Assembly (NCBI GenBank): GCA_045606105.1
Contig: JAZURI010000002.1
Span: 155,230 to 219,229 of the forward strand
Source: Spirochaetia bacterium
GTDB taxonomy: Bacteria; Spirochaetota; Spirochaetia; CADAEX01
DNA: 64,000 bases
Reading direction: 5' to 3'
Below are positions 5,081 to 47,934 of the stretch, piece by piece. Every line of letters begins with the position of its first letter. Position 1 is the first letter of the stretch. Made by a program: the position numbers and the translations under genes. The notes beneath the pieces were generated by a model. It worked only from the letters and a program-made list of their open reading frames with translations, was not told the origin of the DNA and did no database searches.

Positions 5081-6089
5081 TTAATTCTCCCTCTGATATC
5101 TTTCTTATGACCTCTTCCAGGCTCCTTAATGTTTCATCGGAAAGATTCGGATTATTTTCCGGAATACCCATTCCGCCGTTATTCACCCCATGATATTTTA
5201 TTTCACCGCCGGGAAAATTTCCGGCAATGTAATCCAGGGCATTCCTATAGGCTACCAGAGAGACATTTTTTATTGCCGATGTAAGTATACATGATGTCCC
5301 GTCTCCCAGCTCTCCCAGACTGTATTGGTCGGAATCGACTCCGATAACCCAGACCTTGTTACCTTTCAACCTTCTGTTCTTTGCCTCGTTTATCACCCCT
5401 AAACCGGTGGAGCCTGCAGCGGCAAAGACAGCCTTGACCCCTTTTGAATAAAGAGCATTTCCCAGCTGACTGCCCAGAGCCATATCATTGAAAGAGCCGG
5501 CATAAATAAAATTGCTCCTGTCTATGATTATATTTGTTCCCAGATTACGGTTTGCATATTCAATACCCTGAATAAAACCGTTTTCATAACGGATAACCGG
5601 AGGAAGCTTTACTCCGCCGACAAAACCAAGCAGTCCTTCCTTTATTTCCAGTGAGGAAGCCACTCCGACCAGAAATCCTCCCTGCTCTTCCCTGAATATG
5701 TTTACGGAAACATTCTTTGAAGGGGCTTCCTGAGGAGTAATATCTACAAGTGAAAGGGAAAGTTCCGGATAATATCCTGCAGCTATATCAACTATATCAG
5801 AAAAGGCATATCCCGGCAGTACAATAAAGCCGTACCCCCGGTCATAAAGATCTGTAAGGCTTGAAATCCTTTCGGCTACCGACAGGTCTGCAGGTTTGAG
5901 ATATGTTACCACTGCCCCGGTTTCAGATCCTGCTTTCAGAAGCCCTTCATGGATACCCTGATTGAAGCAACGGTCATCCACACCGCCCATATCCACCAGC
6001 ATCCCCAGCCGGACTCCCTGTTCCTCCTTGCCGCGGCAGGCTGCAAAAAGGACCAGAATCAAAGCAATCAGAACCAGAATTCTTTTCAT
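5067..6089 (-). CDS. BMP-family lipoprotein; purine-nucleoside-binding protein of the ABC importer (PnrA/TmpC-like)
   Basis: Lipobox signal peptide MKRILVLIALILVLFAAC, then the Bmp/PnrA fold signature. I took the internal ATG as the start, not the longer ORF that begins at 6176. Confidence 0.8.
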   Translation of the reverse strand: MKRILVLIALILVLFAACRGKEEQGVRLGMLVDMGGVDDRCFNQGIHEGLLKAGSETGAVVTYLKPADLSVAERISSLTDLYDRGYGFIVLPGYAFSDIVDIAAGYYPELSLSLVDITPQEAPSKNVSVNIFREEQGGFLVGVASSLEIKEGLLGFVGGVKLPPVIRYENGFIQGIEYANRNLGTNIIIDRSNFIYAGSFNDMALGSQLGNALYSKGVKAVFAAAGSTGLGVINEAKNRRLKGNKVWVIGVDSDQYSLGELGDGTSCILTSAIKNVSLVAYRNALDYIAGNFPGGEIKYHGVNNGGMGIPENNPNLSDETLRSLEEVIRKISEGELIVRE

Positions 6090-6174
6090 GTTCACAGTAT
6101 ATAACAAAATTATTGTAATTGGAAGAAAAAGGTTATATATTATTAATATAATAATAAAAGATCGAGGTTTTATC

Positions 6175-6378
6175 ATGCCTACTTATGTATATGAATGCTG
6201 CAGCTGCGGAAAGGTTTCCGAGGTTTTTCAGTCCATGTCTGACGAGCCTCTGACAACATGTGAAAAATGCGGCGGAAAGATAAAAAGAATCATTCCCGGA
6301 GGCTCATCCGTAGGAATCGTGTTCAAGGGCAGCGGATTCTATTCCACTGACAATTCCCGTTCCGGAGGTAAATCCTGA
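6175..6378 (+). CDS. FmdB-family zinc-ribbon protein (putative regulatory protein)
   Basis: MPTYVYECCSCGKVSEVFQSMSDEPLTTCEKCGGKIKRII is the classic FmdB CxxC...CxxC signature. It lies 2 nt upstream of mscS. Confidence 0.75.
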   Translation: MPTYVYECCSCGKVSEVFQSMSDEPLTTCEKCGGKIKRIIPGGSSVGIVFKGSGFYSTDNSRSGGKS

Positions 6379-6380
6379 AA

Positions 6381-7202
6381 ATGGAATTTCTGAACAATAC
6401 CCTTTTTACGATAGGTCATCTTGAAATATCAATACTGACCATACTCATGCTTTTCCCTATTTTCATCGTTTCTGCGGTGATGGGAAAGATATTCGGAAAG
6501 ATAGTAAAGAGATCTCTGAAAAACCATAAAGGACATTTAAGCGATTCATCCCGCTTCAGGATGGAAAAGATAACCCAGTACGGGGTTTCTATAATTGCCG
6601 TGTTCACCGGTCTTACCATGATAGGAATCGACCTTTCCGTCATAGCCGTGGTTTTCGGTACACTGGGTATCGGTATCGGTTTCGGTCTCCAGAACTTCAT
6701 TGCCAACTTCTCGGCCGGACTTATCATTTTCTTTACCAGCCCCATCAAGGAGGGAGACCGTATCACAGTAGGAACCCAGGAGGGCTATGTTATCAAGATT
6801 AACACCATTTCGACCATAGTAAACACACTTATGGATGAAACCATGGTGGTTCCAAACTCCCTGCTCATATCTGATGTGATTTTCAATCACACCTTTACAG
6901 GAAGCGATGTATGTATCGAGAATACAATTATTATTGATTATGCGGCAGATGTGGACAAGGCCCTTGCAGTAATGTCCGACGAGCTGAAAAAATGTCCTTA
7001 TCTCCTTCCGGGATGTGAACCTGATGTCAGGGTTTCATCATTTGAGGAAATAGGTATAAAGCTGGTTTCTTATATTTCTATAAGGGATGTAAAGGATAAG
7101 GGACGTGCCAGAGCCTGCAACAACCTGAATATACTTCACGCTTTCCAGGATAAGGACATCCCTCTTCCGACAAGAAGAATAAATGTGATGGTTAAGAGTT
7201 AA
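6381..7202 (+). CDS. mscS: Small-conductance mechanosensitive channel (MscS family)
   Basis: 273 aa. N-terminal TM helices followed by the conserved MscS beta domain (GDRITVGTQEGYVIKINTISTIVNTLMDETMVVPNSLL). Confidence 0.75.
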   Translation: MEFLNNTLFTIGHLEISILTILMLFPIFIVSAVMGKIFGKIVKRSLKNHKGHLSDSSRFRMEKITQYGVSIIAVFTGLTMIGIDLSVIAVVFGTLGIGIGFGLQNFIANFSAGLIIFFTSPIKEGDRITVGTQEGYVIKINTISTIVNTLMDETMVVPNSLLISDVIFNHTFTGSDVCIENTIIIDYAADVDKALAVMSDELKKCPYLLPGCEPDVRVSSFEEIGIKLVSYISIRDVKDKGRARACNNLNILHAFQDKDIPLPTRRINVMVKS

Positions 7203-7755
7203 CTCTTTCCTGATATTCCTTTGTCTCTGTATTTACAAGAATCTTCTCTCCTTCCTTGATGAAAAGAGGAACTCTTACTGTAAGACCGGTTTCAATCTTA
7301 ACAGGCTTGGTTGTCTTTGTAACTGTATCGCCCTTGATGCCTTCGCTGGCTTCTGTTACCTTGAATACCATCTTTGCAGGAAGCTTGATATCAATAGGTC
7401 TGTCTTCCCATCTTACTACTCTGTAATCCTGACCCTCAAGCATGAAATAGATCTTGTCCTCAAGACCTTCTCTTGGAACAGGGAACTGTTCGAAGGTTTC
7501 ACCTTCCATGAAGTAGTAGTTTTCATCATCTGCGTACATGTACTGGCAGTTGGTTTCTGTTACAGAGATTTCTTCAGCTGATTCGTTTGTCTTCATTACA
7601 GTTGCAAGACCCTGATTGTTCAGAAGGTTCTTGAGCTTGAGACGAACAAATGCGGAACCCTTTCCAGGGTTTACGAATTCTCTTTCAACTACAAGATATG
7701 GCGCATCCTTAACCAGGAGGAACATTCCTTTGTCAATTGCTCCGGCTTTAATCAT
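7192..7755 (-). CDS. efp: Elongation factor P
   Basis: 187 aa. The KPGKGSAFVR-type loop appears as NPGKGSAFVRLKLKNL, and the full EF-P three-domain length is present. Confidence 0.9.
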   Translation of the reverse strand: MIKAGAIDKGMFLLVKDAPYLVVEREFVNPGKGSAFVRLKLKNLLNNQGLATVMKTNESAEEISVTETNCQYMYADDENYYFMEGETFEQFPVPREGLEDKIYFMLEGQDYRVVRWEDRPIDIKLPAKMVFKVTEASEGIKGDTVTKTTKPVKIETGLTVRVPLFIKEGEKILVNTETKEYQERVNS

Positions 7756-7823
7756 TTTTATACCTCAAATTAATAGATTATATATAGTGATTTTATATTT
7801 TTATCATAATTAATAACTTTAAA

Positions 7824-7852
7824 CAACAGTTTTTATTTGCAATTTAATAAAA
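7824..7852 (+). promoter_or_regulatory. Candidate sigma70 promoter for the cytidylate-kinase-like gene (TTGCAA, 17 bp spacer, TAAAAT)
   Basis: The intergenic region between divergent efp and the downstream gene is AT-rich and contains TTGCAAtttaataaaatagattgTAAAAT about 45 nt upstream of the ATG at 7894. Confidence 0.3.
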
Positions 7853-7893
7853 TAGATTGTAAAATTATAATATAAACGAAAAGGAAGGTACTT

Positions 7894-8721
7894 ATGGCAA
7901 TTATTACAATAGCCAGACAGGAAGGAAGTCTCAGCAACGAAATAGCTCTCGAACTGGCTTCCAGGCTGGGTTGCCAGTGTGTTGCAAACGACCTTATAGT
8001 ACAGGAGCTTACAACAAAATACGGCATAGATGAAAAGGCCATCAACAAATACGATGAAAAGAAGCCGGGTCTCCTTGCAAGTCTTACAAACCAGCATGAT
8101 AAATACAACAACTATTTCAAGCTTTATTTCCTTGAGAAAGCAATCAGCTCCCCTAAATGTATACTTCTGGGAAGAGGCGGTGCATTTTTTCTCAGGAATG
8201 TTCCGGGGGTCCTCAGGATCAGGGTTGTGGGAAACGAGAATCTCAGGGTCCGGAGAATGATGAAGATCAAGAACATCGATGAGAAGGCTGCAAGAAAGCA
8301 TGTGGCACTCAGGGACAACGAAAGAGCCGGCTATACAAGGTTCTTCTACAACATGTCATGGGATGATCCGGGCTCCTACGATATTGTCATCAATACCGAC
8401 AATCTCACTCCCGATACCATTGCGGCATTCCTTGAAGGAACCATCAATCATTATGAAACCGAGGAATATACCGAAAAGCTGGTAACCAGGTTAAATGAGC
8501 TCTATATCGCCCAGAAGCTTACCATCCATCTTCTTTACGAGGAAAAGATTCCTATCCATTTCCTTGAAGTCGATGTGCAGGGAGATCATGTAATTCTCAT
8601 GGGAACTGTTGAGGTACAGGGTCTTATCGAGCAGGCCGGGGTTGTGGCATCCCAGTATCCGGGAATCAGGAGCGTTGACAACAAGATAGTCTTTGTCAGC
8701 AGCTACCCTCCTATGGCATAG
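7894..8721 (+). CDS. Cytidylate-kinase-like family protein with a C-terminal BON-like domain
   Basis: 275 aa. The N-terminal MAIITIARQEGSLSNEIALELASRLG resembles the Cytidylate_kin2 family. The C-terminal ~80 aa (HFLEVDVQGDHVILMGTVEVQGLIEQAGVVASQYPGIRSVDNKIV) resembles a BON domain. Confidence 0.55.
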   Translation: MAIITIARQEGSLSNEIALELASRLGCQCVANDLIVQELTTKYGIDEKAINKYDEKKPGLLASLTNQHDKYNNYFKLYFLEKAISSPKCILLGRGGAFFLRNVPGVLRIRVVGNENLRVRRMMKIKNIDEKAARKHVALRDNERAGYTRFFYNMSWDDPGSYDIVINTDNLTPDTIAAFLEGTINHYETEEYTEKLVTRLNELYIAQKLTIHLLYEEKIPIHFLEVDVQGDHVILMGTVEVQGLIEQAGVVASQYPGIRSVDNKIVFVSSYPPMA

Positions 8722-27410: not shown

Positions 27411-27440
27411 GGGCTGATTGAAAAATCAGCCTTTTTTTTT
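27411..27440 (+). terminator. Rho-independent terminator on the plus strand (GGCTGATT-gaaa-AATCAGCC followed by T9)
   Basis: Perfect 8-bp stem, 4-nt loop, then nine T residues on the + strand. No annotated + strand gene lies upstream, so it may end a small RNA or form the other half of a bidirectional terminator. Confidence 0.45.
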
Positions 27441-27452
27441 ATCCCTGAAGAC

Positions 27453-27485
27453 AAAAAAAAACCTTGGTCCGACATAGGACCAAGG
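27453..27485 (-). terminator. Rho-independent terminator of the EF-G paralog gene (CCTTGGTCC stem, T9 on the minus strand)
   Basis: On the minus strand GGACCAAGG-tatgtc-CCTTGGTCC is followed by nine T residues, about 32 nt downstream of the stop at 27517. Confidence 0.6.
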
Positions 27486-27516: not shown

Positions 27517-29601
27517 TCAGGCCTGTGCTGCCTCTCTCTTAGCCTTTGCGTCTGCAATTACTGCCTCTGCAATCTTTCCTGTTACCGGACTGTAATGATC
27601 GAATTCAACTTCGAAGGAACCGGTTCCTGATGTAAGAGAACGGAGATCAATTGCATATCTGAGAAGCTCTGCCTGTGGTACTTCTGCATTTACCTGCTGG
27701 ATTCCACCTCCCATGCTGTCCTGACCAAGTACTTTTCCTCTCTTTGAACTGAGATCTGAAAGAACATCTCCGAGATACTGGTCATCCACAAAAACTGAAA
27801 GCTTCATAACAGGCTCCAGGAGAACAGGAGAAGCCTTTTCAATAACTTCGCGCAGACAACCTTTCGCCGCCAGTTTGAATGCCATTTCCGATGAATCGAC
27901 AGGATGTTCCTTACCGTCAAAAAGATTTACCTCTATGTCCACAATCGGATATCCTGCAAGAACACCTTCCTGCATTCCTTCCGCAATACCCTTTTCAATA
28001 CCAGGAATGTAACCCTTTGATACGGCACCACCCTTGATAGTATTGATGAATCTGAGATATTCGCCTCTTTCGATAGGCTGGATCTCAAAATGAACCTCAC
28101 CGAACTGACCGTGACCGCCGGACTGTTTCTTGTGTCTATAGCTTCCGGATGCCTTCTTGGTGATTGTTTCCCTGTATGCAACCTGAGGAACCTTTGTAAC
28201 AATCTTGATTTTCTGCTTGTCGCGGATCTTGTCCAGAATCATGTTGATCTGGAGCTCACCCATTCCGGAAATGATGGTTTCCTTTGTTTCTGTGTTATAG
28301 GAAATACGGAATGTGTTATCTTCCATTGCTGCCTTCTGCATGAACTGGCTGAGCTTGTCCTCATCCTTCTTGTCAACAGCGGATACTGTTACAGAGAATG
28401 TAGGGGTAGGAAGTCTGAGAGGGATGAATCTGTTCTTCAGTTCACCTGTGAACAGTGTGTCATTAGTCAATGTAAGAGGCATCTTTGATACGATACCGAT
28501 ATCTCCCGCTGTAAGCTCCTTGACTTCCATGAGCTTCTTACCTACCGCTGTATAGATCTTTGTTACCTTTTCCTTCTTTCCTTCCCTGAGGTTCATGAGT
28601 TCGGTATCCTGAGTAATGGTACCTGATACACATTTCCAGTAGGAAAGCTTTCCGGAGAACTGGTCGATGGTTGTCTTGATTGTGAAAACCTTGATATCTC
28701 CGTCCGGTGTGATAGGGGTAGGAATCTTGTTCATTTCTTCATCGAGAAGAATGTCGTTGAATCCGAGAGGACACGGTGAAAGCTCTGCAATGAAGTCGAT
28801 AAGAGCTGCAATACCTGAGCATACAGCTGCAGAACCGCAGAGAACAGGAGCAATCTTGTTGTCGCGGAGACCTGCCTGGATAGCCTTCTTTACATCCTCA
28901 ATGCTGAGAGTTCCCTCTTCAAGATATCTTTCCATGATTTCATCGTCGCCCTCTGCGGCTCCTTCAATCATGATTTCCTTGAATTCATTTACCATATCGG
29001 CATATTCTGCAGGAATTTCAGTTGCTGCCTCGATTTTTCCGGAAGCAGGAATCATGTAAGCCTTGTCGTTGAGAATATCGATGACTCCCTTGAAATCCTT
29101 TGCATCGCCGACAGGGATTGTGATAGGAACAAATGTCTTTCCGAATTTCTTCTTGATATCGTCAAGAGCCGCCTGATATGATGCCCTGTCCTTGTCCATC
29201 TTGTTGATGAAAACAAATCTAGGGATATTTCTTGAATCAAGACGCTGCCAGAGTTTCATTGTTTCAATCTGGGCACCTGTATCGGCACCAACCAGAAGCA
29301 GACCTGTCTCACATGCTCTGAGACCGAGAATAACCTCTCCCACGAAATCGGAAGCACCCGGAGTATCTACGAAGTTAAGCTTTTTATCATCTTTAAAAAT
29401 ATGAGATAATGTTGAATGGAATGAAATTTTCTTTTCAATTTCTTCTTCTGTATAGTCACTTACGGTCTTGCCGCTTTCTGTAGTTTCTGCCTTTGAAATC
29501 ATACCACCGGTGAACAGAATCTGCTCAAGCAAAGTTGTTTTACCTGTGCCGACATGTCCGGCCAATGCTGTGTTTTTAATTTGTTCAGTAGTAAATTCCA
29601 T
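27517..29601 (-). CDS. Elongation factor G paralog (EF-G2-like translational GTPase) with divergent G motifs
   Basis: 694 aa with full EF-G five-domain length. G1 is AGHVGTGKTT, G3 is VDTPGASDF (His to Ala), G4 is NKMD. The domain IV/V region is conserved (GGHGQFGEVHFEIQP...). Confidence 0.8.
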   Translation of the reverse strand: MEFTTEQIKNTALAGHVGTGKTTLLEQILFTGGMISKAETTESGKTVSDYTEEEIEKKISFHSTLSHIFKDDKKLNFVDTPGASDFVGEVILGLRACETGLLLVGADTGAQIETMKLWQRLDSRNIPRFVFINKMDKDRASYQAALDDIKKKFGKTFVPITIPVGDAKDFKGVIDILNDKAYMIPASGKIEAATEIPAEYADMVNEFKEIMIEGAAEGDDEIMERYLEEGTLSIEDVKKAIQAGLRDNKIAPVLCGSAAVCSGIAALIDFIAELSPCPLGFNDILLDEEMNKIPTPITPDGDIKVFTIKTTIDQFSGKLSYWKCVSGTITQDTELMNLREGKKEKVTKIYTAVGKKLMEVKELTAGDIGIVSKMPLTLTNDTLFTGELKNRFIPLRLPTPTFSVTVSAVDKKDEDKLSQFMQKAAMEDNTFRISYNTETKETIISGMGELQINMILDKIRDKQKIKIVTKVPQVAYRETITKKASGSYRHKKQSGGHGQFGEVHFEIQPIERGEYLRFINTIKGGAVSKGYIPGIEKGIAEGMQEGVLAGYPIVDIEVNLFDGKEHPVDSSEMAFKLAAKGCLREVIEKASPVLLEPVMKLSVFVDDQYLGDVLSDLSSKRGKVLGQDSMGGGIQQVNAEVPQAELLRYAIDLRSLTSGTGSFEVEFDHYSPVTGKIAEAVIADAKAKREAAQA

Positions 29602-29685
29602 AAATAAGACCTCCTCTTTAACTACCTTTATATGATAAAAGGCACTTCAGGGAGTTGTCAACCAAAAAATGGATTTCGTTGAAAA

Positions 29686-30060
29686 TTAGTTGTTTTTAAG
29701 GGAATTTATGAAATTTTTGAGGCAAAAAAAGCTTTTTTCACTGATATCATGCTCGATTTTACATGCATCAGAGTCAGCAGTTTCTGCATCCACCCCTATT
29801 TTTTCCAGAAAGTCTGCAATTACCTTATGTTTTTCATAAATACGGTCTGCAATTTTCTTTCCTTCATCGGTAAGGGAAATGGATGAGTCACTGTTGATGG
29901 TTATGTAACCTGCATCTGCCAGAGAATGTACCGCGGCGCTGACCGAAGGCTTGGAGAATCCCATGGCCCGTGCTATATCGACGGAGCGTACCTTTTCCTT
30001 TTCACCCTGGAGAACCACGATGGTCTCCAGGTACATTTCTGCAGATTCCTGAATTTTCAT
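29686..30060 (-). CDS. DtxR/MntR-family metal-dependent transcriptional repressor (short MntR/TroR type)
   Basis: 124 aa. The N-terminal wHTH (MYLETIVVLQGEKEKVRSVDIARAMGFSKPSVSAAVHSLADAGYI) is followed by a metal-binding/dimerisation helix region with conserved E, H and D residues. Confidence 0.75.
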   Translation of the reverse strand: MKIQESAEMYLETIVVLQGEKEKVRSVDIARAMGFSKPSVSAAVHSLADAGYITINSDSSISLTDEGKKIADRIYEKHKVIADFLEKIGVDAETADSDACKIEHDISEKSFFCLKNFINSLKNN

Positions 30061-31229
30061 TACGGCTTAAGCTCCGACATGATGTCTTCGTTGGTTGAGA
30101 TAGGGCTGTTGTTTTCCTTTGCAATATCGTAGGCTGTCTTTCCTTCGCCGGACTTGGCTGTAATGTCAGCCCCTTCCTCAAGAAGGGTTTCGATCATTCC
30201 CACAGATTCGCTGAAAAGGGCTGCAACCATAAGCGGTGTCATACCTCTCGGATCCCTGCCGTTTACATCGGCACCGGCCTTGATAAGGTTCTTTGCAATC
30301 ATTGTGTTGCTGTTCTTCATGGCAACATACATGAGTGCTGAAAGTCCGTTCTTGTCGGTCTGCTTCGGATCTGCTCCCAGCTCCAGAAATGTATCAATTA
30401 CTTCAGAGTTGAAGTTATAAGAACATGCATAGAGGAACGGTGAGAAACCGGCCGGTGTCATATCAGAAACAGAAACTCCCAGTCCGTGGAGATATTTTAT
30501 AACTTCAGGGTTAGGATTGAAGCATGCGGCCATGATCATCGGTGTGAAATCTTTTACACGGCAATTGTAGTCTGCCCCTTTTTCCACAAGCATCTTAAGG
30601 ACATCCACATTGTGGTTTGACATTGCAGTCTGCATTATAACCGGATATCCCTTCCTGTTTTCGGCATTCATGTCTGCACCCAGGGAGATAAGGGTTTCGG
30701 CAACCTTTGGGTTTTCGTTCTTGGTAACCGCGAACATAAGGGCTGTGAATCCGTCGATGTTCCTGTCTTCAAGATCGGCTCCTGCCTCCACGAGAACCTT
30801 GATGACATCGGTCTTGATATTTCCGCCGGCAGCTGCCATAAGAGGGGAAAGTCCGTCCTTGTTCTTGAGGTTCACATCTGCTCCGGCCTTGATAAGCTCG
30901 TTGAAGATTTCGATATTTGTTGTGGTCTGGGCTGCAAAGAGGAGAGCTGAATCGCCGTGGATATCAACCTCGTTTACCTTTGCTCCGTGCCTGAGAATAA
31001 TCTTAACTGCCTCCAGGGCATTGTCGTTCTGTGCAGCAATCATGAGAGGAGTTGTATAAAGCTCTCCGCTTCCGCTGTTGACTCTGGCACCGTCTTTGAT
31101 GGCCTGTTCAATGGCTTCAGGATTATTCTGTCTTACTATCTCGGCAAAAGCATCAGACTTCTTGTCACAGAATGCTGCAACCGGCATAACAAAGGCAATG
31201 AACAATACAAATAATTTTTTTAACATCAC
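30060..31229 (-). CDS. Ankyrin-repeat protein with a signal peptide (probable lipoprotein)
   Basis: 389 aa. Signal/lipobox VAAFC, then about 10 tandem ANK repeats ([27 protein letters not shown]...). It overlaps both flanking genes in an operon. Confidence 0.7.
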
Positions 31230-47861: not shown

Positions 47862-47934
47862 TGCCACCGATCAGAATCGAACTGATGACACGTAGATTTT
47901 CAGTCTACTGCTCTACCGACTGAGCTACAGCGGC
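47862..47934 (-). tRNA. tRNA-Phe (anticodon GAA)
   Basis: Minus-strand sequence GCCGCTGTAGCTCAGTCGGTAGAGCAGTAGACTGAAAATCTACGTGTCATCAGTTCGATTCTGATCGGTGGCA folds as a cloverleaf. The 7-bp acceptor has two G-U pairs. D-loop AGTCGGTA. Anticodon loop CTGAAAA. T-loop TTCGATT. CCA is not encoded. Confidence 0.85.

Follow-up and report, generated by a model that had tools for sequence, protein, structure and literature searches.

The 694-aa product of a minus-strand gene in the window (the whole 64-kb stretch of spirochaete DNA that was analysed) belongs, with near certainty, to the EFG II (EF-G2) family of elongation factor G (EF-G) paralogs, and is an EF-G2-type factor of an already described family rather than a new kind of factor. 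Taken as a whole, we think it fairly probable that this is a spirochaete EFG II protein, accessory to the main EF-Gs, which would act as a hydrolysis-poor, slow translocase under conditions of scarcity. The mechanistic core of this proposal, slow translocation independent of GTP hydrolysis, is drawn by analogy with characterised relatives and could as readily prove wrong as right.

The coding sequence occupies 27517..29601, stop codon included (ATG at 29601-29599, TGA at 27519-27517; this and all features given below lie on the minus strand), and was delimited from the open reading frame list and the five EF-G Pfam domains of its product. GTP_EFTU, EF-G_D2, EFG_III, EFG_IV and EFG_C all score above cut-off, which bears out the original prediction of an EF-G paralog of full five-domain length, and the AlphaFold2 model of the product has a mean pLDDT of 89.4 and a pTM of 0.81. 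Inside the 84-nt gap 5' of the ATG there is a putative sigma-70-type promoter (TTGACA-18 nt-TATCAT, 29632..29661), recognised by consensus match only (11/12), and a Shine-Dalgarno sequence GAGGAGG was read 8 nt 5' of the ATG (29610..29616). The gene does have its own rho-independent terminator, as had been claimed: the element at 27452..27485 starts 31 nt past the stop codon and consists of a 9-bp stem (6 G-C) with a 6-nt loop at 27485..27462, followed by nine T. No riboswitch or leader RNA was found upstream of the gene with Rfam, the sole match in the window being tRNA-Phe. Neighbouring genes encode SecA (secA), a DtxR-type repressor, an ankyrin-repeat protein and malic enzyme, and the gene lies outside the str operon (rpsL-rpsG-fusA-tuf), as is required of EFG II. 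We considered whether the DtxR-type repressor gene directly upstream makes for a conserved link to metal regulation, and rejected the idea, since this repressor is patchy among rumen and gut relatives: at the loci of relatives 76-91% identical it is present in L004/L006 (a horse-faeces MAG) and L016, with the arrangement of the horse-faeces MAG recurring in Logan contig L005, and absent from L007-L010, L075 and L077.

Assignment to EFG II follows the signature positions of Margus 2011 (PMC3150367), six of type I and seven of type II in 1WDT numbering. The type I positions, which differ from EFG I (Gly16, Leu25, Ser61, Thr291, Gly333 and Lys/Arg352), correspond to G15, L24, S60, T310, G354 and K373 here, all with the EFG II residue, and the same residues occur in 120, 104, 120, 120, 119 and 120, respectively, of the 120 closest homologs. 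The conserved type II positions (D216, V250, L264, K471, K472, E513 and G603) are likewise all retained, as D219, V253, L267, K491, K492, E536 and G626, and all 13 positions are nearly invariant across the 120 homologs. The motif pattern is also that of EFG II, with RGITI relaxed to xxxSx (KKISF) and GKT, DxPG, NKMD and GSA present. A neighbour-joining tree of 67 sequences, which is distance-based and has a single experimentally anchored EFG II sequence (Thermus thermophilus EF-G-2), split the canonical EF-Gs from the signature-bearing proteins, including ours and T. thermophilus EF-G-2, in 100/100 bootstraps; the canonical side held T. thermophilus EF-G and the spirochaete 675-677-aa paralogs. 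Profile models point the same way. The best NCBIfam match was NF009381 (PRK12740.1-5; 796.8 bits against a cut-off of 583), and the canonical EF-G model TIGR00484 gave 590.8 bits, below its cut-off of 659.4. This shortfall, together with an alanine where canonical EF-G has its catalytic histidine, indicates that the protein is not a canonical EF-G (EFG I); the original prediction of a paralog distinct from canonical fusA, with an altered catalytic centre and intact nucleotide-binding motifs, was therefore correct. The protein also falls below the cut-offs of the NCBIfam EF-G2 model NF009377 (560 bits against 890) and of NF058620, Bacteroidetes-specific by name (578 against 1000), and its closest characterised relatives are about 32-33% identical. 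The best TM-score of its structural model was to the ribosome-bound EF-G2 of Bacteroides thetaiotaomicron (8dmf; TMq 0.92, rmsd 3.1 Å).

The HMMER alignment with T. thermophilus EF-G is gapless over residues 2-180, and no indel near switch II could shift another histidine into the catalytic position; the motif alignment behind the original prediction is therefore not off by an insertion. The G1/P-loop AGHVGTGKTT (residues 14-23, 29533..29562), extended by one residue to AGHVGTGKTTL (14-24), pairs with AAHIDAGKTTT, the Ile and Asp of AHIDAGKT being replaced by Val17 and Gly18. Gly15 (Ala in EFG I) and Leu24 just past G1 are EFG II signatures, and G15, H16, T19, G20, K21 and T22 are invariant across the 120 homologs. 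In switch I/G2, KKISF (residues 57-61, 29419..29433) replaces RGITI, with EKKISFH (56-62) pairing with ERGITIT; Ser60, an EFG II signature found in 120/120 homologs, stands for the Mg-coordinating Thr, in agreement with the EFG II G2 consensus xxxSx (Margus 2011, PMC3150367). At G3/switch II, DTPGA (residues 79-83, 29353..29367; DTPGASDF over 79-86) pairs with DTPGHVDF, which places Ala83 (codon 29353-29355) at the catalytic histidine position (T. thermophilus His87, E. coli His92). G4, which confers guanine specificity, is intact, NKMD (residues 133-136, 29194..29205) pairing with NKMD. The elements for GTP binding are therefore kept (the GKT P-loop, Ser60 for Mg, DxPG, NKMD and GSA) and those that activate hydrolysis in canonical EF-G are gone, with His changed to Ala, the P-loop Ile-Asp to Val-Gly and RGITI degenerate.

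The histidine loss had been presented as a peculiarity of one protein. It is instead the norm in EFG II/EF-G2, indeed what defines this family, which has been known since 2011. The catalytic histidine is absent from all 120 closest homologs, in which position 83 is Ser (65), Ala (28), Ile (11), Thr (9), Val (4) or Leu (3) and never His, while D79, P81 and G82 of switch II are invariant. In a wider alignment of 155 sequences (the 150 nearest cluster representatives with three further family members and two reference sequences), Tyr occupied the catalytic column in 69, Phe in 34, Ser in 9, Asp in 9, Ala in 7 and His in 9, about four of these nine His coming from canonical EF-Gs. T. thermophilus EF-G-2 has DAPGY at switch II and GHAGSGKT at G1, and in Mycobacterium smegmatis EF-G2 the catalytic His is replaced by Tyr98 (bioRxiv 10.64898/2026.05.25.727771). 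The clade of the present protein carries a small residue at this position (Ser in most, Ala here), and the rest of EFG II has mostly Tyr or Phe.

A function can be proposed from the characterised relatives. The EFG II product would be the spirochaete form of an ancient, non-essential EF-G paralog, accessory to the main elongation and recycling factors (spdEFG1 and spdEFG2 in spirochaetes). It would bind GTP and the ribosome, and would drive tRNA-mRNA translocation through binding energy and the insertion of domain IV in the A site, with GTP hydrolysis predicted to be very slow or absent and turnover, as a result, slow. The outcome may be a cheap and slow mode of translation in times of nutrient scarcity, as reported for B. 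thetaiotaomicron EF-G2. Translocation by that EF-G paralog needs no GTP hydrolysis (Han et al. 2023, cited by PMC12775393 and PMC10994844), and expression of its gene, fusA2, is highest on carbon deprivation, with fusA showing the inverse (PMC10994844). E. coli EF-G H92A, although highly deficient in GTP hydrolysis, still translocates over multiple turnovers and takes around 20 s to be released (PMC12775393). The domain IV tip of our protein is also well preserved in the 120-homolog alignment. In tip loop 1 (residues 491-502, KKQSGGHGQFGE; 28096..28131), which contains the EFG II signatures Lys491 and Lys492, no variation was seen at K491, K492, Q493, G495, G496, G498 or Q499, and H497 is shared by 119 of the 120. 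In tip loop 2 (residues 562-571, DGKEHPVDSS; 27889..27918), where His566 is the equivalent of T. thermophilus His573, the family shows no change at D, G, K, E, H, V, D and S. Because these loops are needed for translocation, the suggestion that the protein no longer acts as a canonical translocase seems doubtful.

Its companion, impaired or altered GTP hydrolysis, fares better and is plausible by analogy: the EF-G2 proteins of B. thetaiotaomicron and M. smegmatis agree with it, the latter having minimal ribosome-dependent GTPase activity (bioRxiv 10.64898/2026.05.25.727771). It is not certain, as T. thermophilus EF-G-2 disagrees. This protein (DAPGY, GHAGSGKT) lacks both the histidine and the P-loop Asp, and yet intrinsic and ribosome-dependent GTPase activity and translocation have been reported for it (Margus 2011, PMC3150367; bioRxiv 10.64898/2026.05.25.727771, citing Connell et al. 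2007), so that sequence alone is no proof of lost hydrolysis. It may be, then, that our protein does hydrolyse GTP on the ribosome, without recourse to the histidine, and serves as a second, slightly different GTP-dependent translocase, an alternative that we consider unlikely. It retains the P-loop His16, a contact of the sarcin-ricin loop, and a switch I histidine two residues past Ser60, His62, is present in 103/120 family members. As a relocated catalytic residue His62 was rejected: a histidine turns up sporadically at the same position in EFG II proteins whose catalytic residue is Tyr, and so it is not a specific compensation. In this clade position 83 drifts between small and aliphatic residues (Ser, Ala, Ile, Thr, Val, Leu), which argues that it has no catalytic function; the E. 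coli H92A enzyme speaks against hydrolysis without the histidine, and GTPase activity is missing in two of the three characterised EFG II proteins.

Members of EFG II differ in function, since M. smegmatis EF-G2 appears neither to translocate nor to recycle ribosomes (bioRxiv 10.64898/2026.05.25.727771). On that model our protein would be a stress-specific, ribosome-binding but non-translocating regulator, occupying the factor site of the non-rotated 70S in a hibernation-like manner and damping or protecting translation under stress. The mycobacterial protein binds the non-ratcheted 70S and has been termed stress-specific (bioRxiv 10.64898/2026.05.25.727771; Baid & Sengupta 2025, through a citing source). 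It is, however, far more diverged in G1, G4 and G5 (GPSGG, TKLD), whereas ours retains GHxxTGKT, NKMD, GSA and the invariant domain IV tip loops, and scores higher to canonical EF-G (503 bits with the T. thermophilus protein) than to M. smegmatis EF-G2 (404 bits). The hibernation-type role that had been listed among the candidates thus survives as a minority reading, and we regard it as quite improbable.

For the other roles put forward at the outset, ribosome rescue or tetracycline-type protection, we found no support, and we judge a rescue factor or a Tet(M)/Tet(O)-like ribosomal protection protein to be highly improbable. Such proteins belong to the same EF2 superfamily and are similar in length, and the B. 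thetaiotaomicron EF-G2 protein of PDB 7uvp was even deposited under the name 'TetQ'. Against the protection models, however, our protein reaches 269 bits for tet_protect NF012153 (cut-off 775), and 192 against 1100 and 125 against 1425 bits for the Tet(M/O/W/Q) models, and with Tet(M), Tet(Q) and Otr(A) its scores fall far short of the cut-offs. Its domain IV carries EF-G-type loops, and no resistance or mobile-element context was seen around the gene.

That the organism has no EF-G but this one, which would make it a canonical translocase whose active site is unusual, or that the gene is a decaying pseudogene copy, we regard as extremely improbable, even though the 64-kb window holds no other EF-G gene. 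Orthologs at 81-91% identity retain DTPGASDF, and the gene is under strong purifying selection: dN/dS was 0.05-0.09 in the ortholog comparisons, in all but one of which dS was saturated (1.5-2.5), and the usable comparison (L016, dS 0.62) gave 0.078. A dN/dS of about 0.08 and an open reading frame that is intact across the phylum exclude decay. As for a sole EF-G, an EFG II protein is expected to share its genome with another EF-G, either EFG I or spdEFG1 plus spdEFG2, and every spirochaete genome tabulated with EFGII also has spdEFG1 and spdEFG2, the three occurring together in eight Spirochaeta/Treponema genomes; an EFGII is listed for the cultivable Treponema denticola, and none is given for Borrelia or T. 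pallidum (Atkinson 2015, PMC4342817); no spirochaete sub-subgroup was named by Margus 2011 (PMC3150367). A His-bearing EF-G lies at most 500 nt upstream of the ortholog in 13/56 GTDB loci, ten more have one somewhere in the 8-kb flank, and in complete chromosomes of 3.9-4.2 Mb the EFG II ortholog adjoins a His-bearing EF-G. In three rumen Spirochaetia MAGs (GCA_017405275.1, GCA_017437425.1 and GCA_017538315.1) a His-bearing EF-G of 675-676 aa is encoded at another place in the genome, in the order SBP_bac_5, FAD oxidoreductase, EF-G, adenylate kinase. These were found with the 677-aa neighbour from locus L001, in assemblies separate from those giving the EFG II loci, and so are suggestive of a canonical EF-G in the EFG II-bearing rumen MAGs as well.

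The accessory, hydrolysis-poor translocase that we favour has several described counterparts, none of which it matches in full. With T. thermophilus EF-G-2 (1WDT, the EFG II prototype) it shares the 13 signatures, GHxxxGKT with the Gly and the trailing Leu, and DxPG without His, and with EFG II generally the reduction of G2 to xxxSx and a gene outside the str operon. It nonetheless has just 33% identity to 1WDT, has moved less far from canonical EF-G than the majority of the EFG II proteins (503 bits with T. thermophilus EF-G against 376 with 1WDT) and is without the large G' or domain I/II deletion. The EF-G2 of B. thetaiotaomicron (BT_2167, fusA2; PDB 7UVP/8DMF) is an EFG II protein which, going by citations of Han et al. 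(2023, EMBO J), has no GTPase activity, translocates slowly and is induced by carbon starvation. Ours, in contrast, is 32% identical to it, and falls below the cut-off of the Bacteroidetes model, and the regulation by Cur is Bacteroides-specific. M. smegmatis EF-G2 (PDB 9K0Z/9K10), dispensable for growth, is likewise of EFG II type with the His replaced; it is strongly degenerate in G1, G4 and G5, all of which our protein keeps along with the domain IV tip. E. coli EF-G H92A (H91A) bears the same His-to-Ala change at the same position and still translocates, with very slow hydrolysis and release, but is an engineered single change in a canonical factor, whereas the P-loop Ile-Asp and switch I are altered here too. 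Finally, spdEFG1 and spdEFG2 (B. burgdorferi EF-G1 and EF-G2; the mtEF-G1/mtEF-G2 lineage) are EF-G paralogs from the same phylum that keep AHIDAGKT, RGITI and DTPGH and pass TIGR00484, none of which holds for our protein, and they lie on the other side of the tree. Identity with spdEFG1 was rejected, as the three-residue 'KDG' insertion in switch I is missing and the alignment to T. thermophilus EF-G is gapless there.

In many Spirochaetota the EFG II ortholog is directly preceded, on the same strand, by a spdEFG2-like gene. This adjacency, together with the clade-specific Ser/Ala catalytic state and the conserved switch I His62, raises a further, tentative possibility to which we give little weight, namely that the EFG II copy is a third, hydrolysis-independent translocase working with spdEFG2 in the spirochaete lineage. 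In spirochaetes translocation already falls to spdEFG1 and recycling to spdEFG2, and EFG II would be an added translocase; if true, EFG II and spdEFG2 would together amount to a complete second set of factors, low in energy cost, for elongation and recycling during starvation.

In summary, EF-G paralogs that lack the catalytic histidine are an established family, with structures and biochemistry from Bacteroides, Mycobacterium and Thermus, and are already catalogued in spirochaetes. Our results identify as EF-G2-type factors those proteins of rumen and gut spirochaete MAGs that carry the plain annotation 'elongation factor G', and describe a spirochaete clade with small rather than aromatic residues at the catalytic position and a gene that is often linked to a recycling-type EF-G. 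If the spirochaete protein is indeed a hydrolysis-independent translocase, it would extend to a second phylum the evidence for translocation on binding energy alone, and would add to the evidence that gut microbes translate cheaply when starved.

The EF-G paralog is encoded on the minus strand at 27517..29601, as the original prediction had it, with an ATG at 29601 and a TGA at 27519-27517, and its 694-aa product comprises the five EF-G domains (Pfam GTP_EFTU, EF-G_D2, EFG_III, EFG_IV and EFG_C). A phmmer alignment with Thermus thermophilus (Tth) EF-G was gapless over the first ~180 residues, pairing AGHVGTGKTTL with AAHIDAGKTTT (G1), EKKISFH with ERGITIT (switch I), DTPGASDF with DTPGHVDF (switch II) and NKMD with NKMD (G4). 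This bears out the altered motifs and intact NKMD read previously; the displacement by an insertion that had been allowed for was not found, there being no indel in this stretch able to move another His to the catalytic site, and Ala83 aligns precisely with the catalytic His of canonical EF-G (His87 in Tth, His92 in Escherichia coli). On the same strand, a promoter-like site (TTGACA-18-TATCAT, 11 of 12 consensus matches) lies 5' of the gene, a Shine-Dalgarno sequence (GAGGAGG) stands 8 nt 5' of the start codon, and the terminator ascribed to the gene is present as a clean hairpin (stem 27485..27462) followed by a T-run. A second hairpin, at 27411-27432 (plus strand), separates this terminator from secA; it has a T-run after it on the plus strand and an A-run before it on the minus strand, and no converging plus-strand gene ends there.

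Bacterial EF-Gs comprise EFG I, spdEFG1, spdEFG2 and EFG II, the last marked by six residues unlike EFG I (type I) and seven specially conserved ones (type II) (Margus, Remm and Tenson, 2011; PMC3150367). In an alignment with Tth EF-G, T. thermophilus EF-G-2 (reference sequence checked and identical to PDB 1WDT) and the 120 closest homologs, our protein carried all six type I residues (G15, L24, S60, T310, G354, K373) and all seven of type II (D219, V253, L267, K491, K492, E536, G626), and these thirteen positions were almost invariant across the homologs. In a neighbour-joining tree of 67 sequences, one branch, recovered in 100 of 100 bootstraps, separated the canonical EF-Gs from every protein with the signature; Tth EF-G and the spirochaete paralogs that have the His fell on the first side, Tth EF-G-2 and our protein on the second. 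The best NCBIfam model was NF009381 (PRK12740.1-5, 'elongation factor G' subfamily; 796.8 bits, cut-off 583), while the canonical equivalog TIGR00484 scored below its cut-off (590.8 against 659.4 bits). The AlphaFold2 model was a regular five-domain EF-G (pLDDT 89.4, pTM 0.81), and its top TM-score was with Bacteroides thetaiotaomicron EF-G2 on the ribosome (8dmf, TMq 0.92). The protein is thus a member of EFG II (EF-G2). The original reading, a paralog distinct from canonical EF-G with a changed GTPase, was reasonable in gist, but the feature is a hallmark of a known family.

The catalytic His is missing from all 120 closest homologs (at least 56% identity, all Spirochaetota where named); in its place stands Ser (65), Ala (28), Ile (11), Thr (9), Val (4) or Leu (3). 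In a full HMMER search of 1.84 billion cluster representatives, a single one stands for the entire spirochaete clade. When 150 representatives were aligned with three more family members and two references, the column held Tyr in 69 and Phe in 34, with fewer Ser, Asp, Ala or Leu, and His in only nine, about four of them ordinary EF-Gs. Judged from these alignments, loss of the histidine is the EFG II norm; that spirochaetes have a small residue (Ser/Ala) in an otherwise mostly aromatic family appears to be unstated in the EFG II literature examined, a minor point. Two representatives were fusion-sized: P0232 (943 aa) matched only query residues 1-486, at 46% identity, before diverging, and P0242 (1040 aa) is a canonical EF-G lengthened at its N-terminus by ~340 aa. 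His62 in switch I (codon 29416-29418, minus strand), two residues past the Mg-binding Ser60, occurs in 103 of the 120 homologs; the position is Thr in canonical EF-G and sporadically His in other EFG II clades.

Within the family, little or no variation is seen at the nucleotide-binding residues G15, H16, T19, G20, K21, T22, S60, D79, P81, G82, D85, F86 and G88 or in the domain IV tip loops KKQSGGHGQ and DGKEHPVDSS, and NKxD is kept in most members. The catalytic position drifts among non-catalytic residues, and the P-loop Ile-Asp of AHIDAGKT has become Val/Gly, then Gly/Ser. Against close orthologs dN/dS was 0.05-0.09, with dS saturated except in the comparison with locus L016, which gave 0.078. 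Together, the conserved binding residues and tip loops, drifting catalytic site and low dN/dS indicate that selection retains the translocation tip and the capacity to bind GTP and the ribosome, but not the hydrolysis machinery.

EFG II is already catalogued for spirochaetes: Spirochaeta sp. Buddy, S. coccoides, S. smaragdinae, S. thermophila, Treponema azotonutricium, T. brennaborense, T. denticola and T. primitia have the set EFGII, spdEFG1 and spdEFG2, and Borrelia and T. pallidum spdEFG1 and spdEFG2 only (Atkinson, 2015; PMC4342817, Additional file 2). A scan of GTDB species genomes found the ortholog across Spirochaetota (Spirochaetia, Treponematales, Sphaerochaeta, Salinispira and Rectinemataceae labels), the nearest (76-91% identity) in MAGs of horse-faeces, yak, buffalo, goat and sheep-rumen origin, so a spirochaete of the rumen or gut is the most likely source of the window. 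On L068 (CAVESN010000028.1), 20 kb long and assigned to Bacteroides uniformis, lies a gene for an EFG II of spirochaete type; its product shares 51% identity with the query, whereas the B. thetaiotaomicron EF-G2 of solved structure is far more distant (32%). Mis-binning is the likely cause, horizontal transfer less so.

The rumen clade shares the order malic enzyme, ankyrin-repeat protein, in some genomes a DtxR-type repressor, and EFG II, with secA downstream immediately or some kilobases on. In the window, the ankyrin protein (389 aa; 30060-31229, minus strand) consists almost wholly of repeats and has a hydrophobic N-terminus; its coding sequence shares 4 nt with the malic-enzyme gene and 1 nt with that of the repressor. 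The gene for this repressor, a 124-aa metal-dependent protein of DtxR/MntR type (29686-30060, minus strand; Fe_dep_repress and Fe_dep_repr_C), stops 84 nt short of the EFG II start. It recurs at L016, on Logan contig L005 and in the MAG from horse faeces (L004/L006), and the corresponding site lacks it in L007-L010, L075 and L077, so its link to EFG II is probably incidental. A tRNA-Phe (GAA; 47862-47934, minus strand) was the sole Rfam/ARAGORN match in the 64-kb window.

Many other Spirochaetota encode an EF-G paralog of 675-677 aa immediately 5' of the EFG II ortholog on the same strand: it lies within 500 nt at 13 of the 56 loci whose upstream sequence reaches at least 2.6 kb, and within the 8-kb flank at 10 more. 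Adjacent pairs occur at L001 (3681-5714, 677 aa, then 6001-8085), L002 (3861-5894, then 6001-8082), L011-L015, L019-L021, L027, L045, L065, L070 and L071, with gaps of 88-417 nt; adjacency is lost in the window's rumen clade. The paralog, of which P0310, P0302 and P0328 (L085-L104) are rumen versions, has AHIDAGKT, RGITI, DTPGH and NKMD and passes TIGR00484 (848-864 bits). Both of its domain IV tip loops have degenerated (VIAGNENRAE against QTGGRGQYGH; DAQYSETFSS against DGSYHEVDSS), and it lacks the KDG insertion; by elimination it would be a recycling-type spdEFG2, which NCBIfam would name plainly 'elongation factor G'. This frequent adjacency seems likewise unstated, if minor, in the EFG II literature examined. 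No second EF-G lies within the 64-kb window, and His-bearing 675-676-aa EF-Gs occur elsewhere in rumen Spirochaetia MAGs; relatives and published tables, rather than the window's own genome, indicate that the query is not the organism's only EF-G.

What might such a protein do? T. thermophilus EF-G-2, which also lacks the His (DAPGY at switch II), is reported to be a histidine-independent GTPase on the ribosome (bioRxiv 10.64898/2026.05.25.727771), and a similar activity here is possible, if rather unlikely. Slightly more doubtful is a non-translocating stress regulator of the Mycobacterium smegmatis type, where EF-G2 has Tyr98 in place of His88 and H88Y in EF-G1 nearly abolishes GTPase (bioRxiv 10.64898/2026.05.25.727771). 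NCBIfam scores, the tables of Atkinson (2015) and dN/dS exclude, or make very unlikely, Tet-type protection, a role as sole EF-G and decay to a pseudogene. The best reading of our analysis is a slow translocase poor in hydrolysis. E. coli EF-G H92A, the same His-to-Ala substitution as Ala83, is highly deficient in hydrolysis yet keeps multi-turnover translocation, with release in ~20 s (PMC12775393). That paper also cites B. thetaiotaomicron EF-G2 as a paralog translocating without GTP hydrolysis. In B. thetaiotaomicron, fusA2 peaks under carbon starvation as fusA falls (PMC10994844). All three fit binding kept and hydrolysis lost, and the spirochaete protein may serve as a GTP-binding, slow alternative translocase during nutrient-limited growth.
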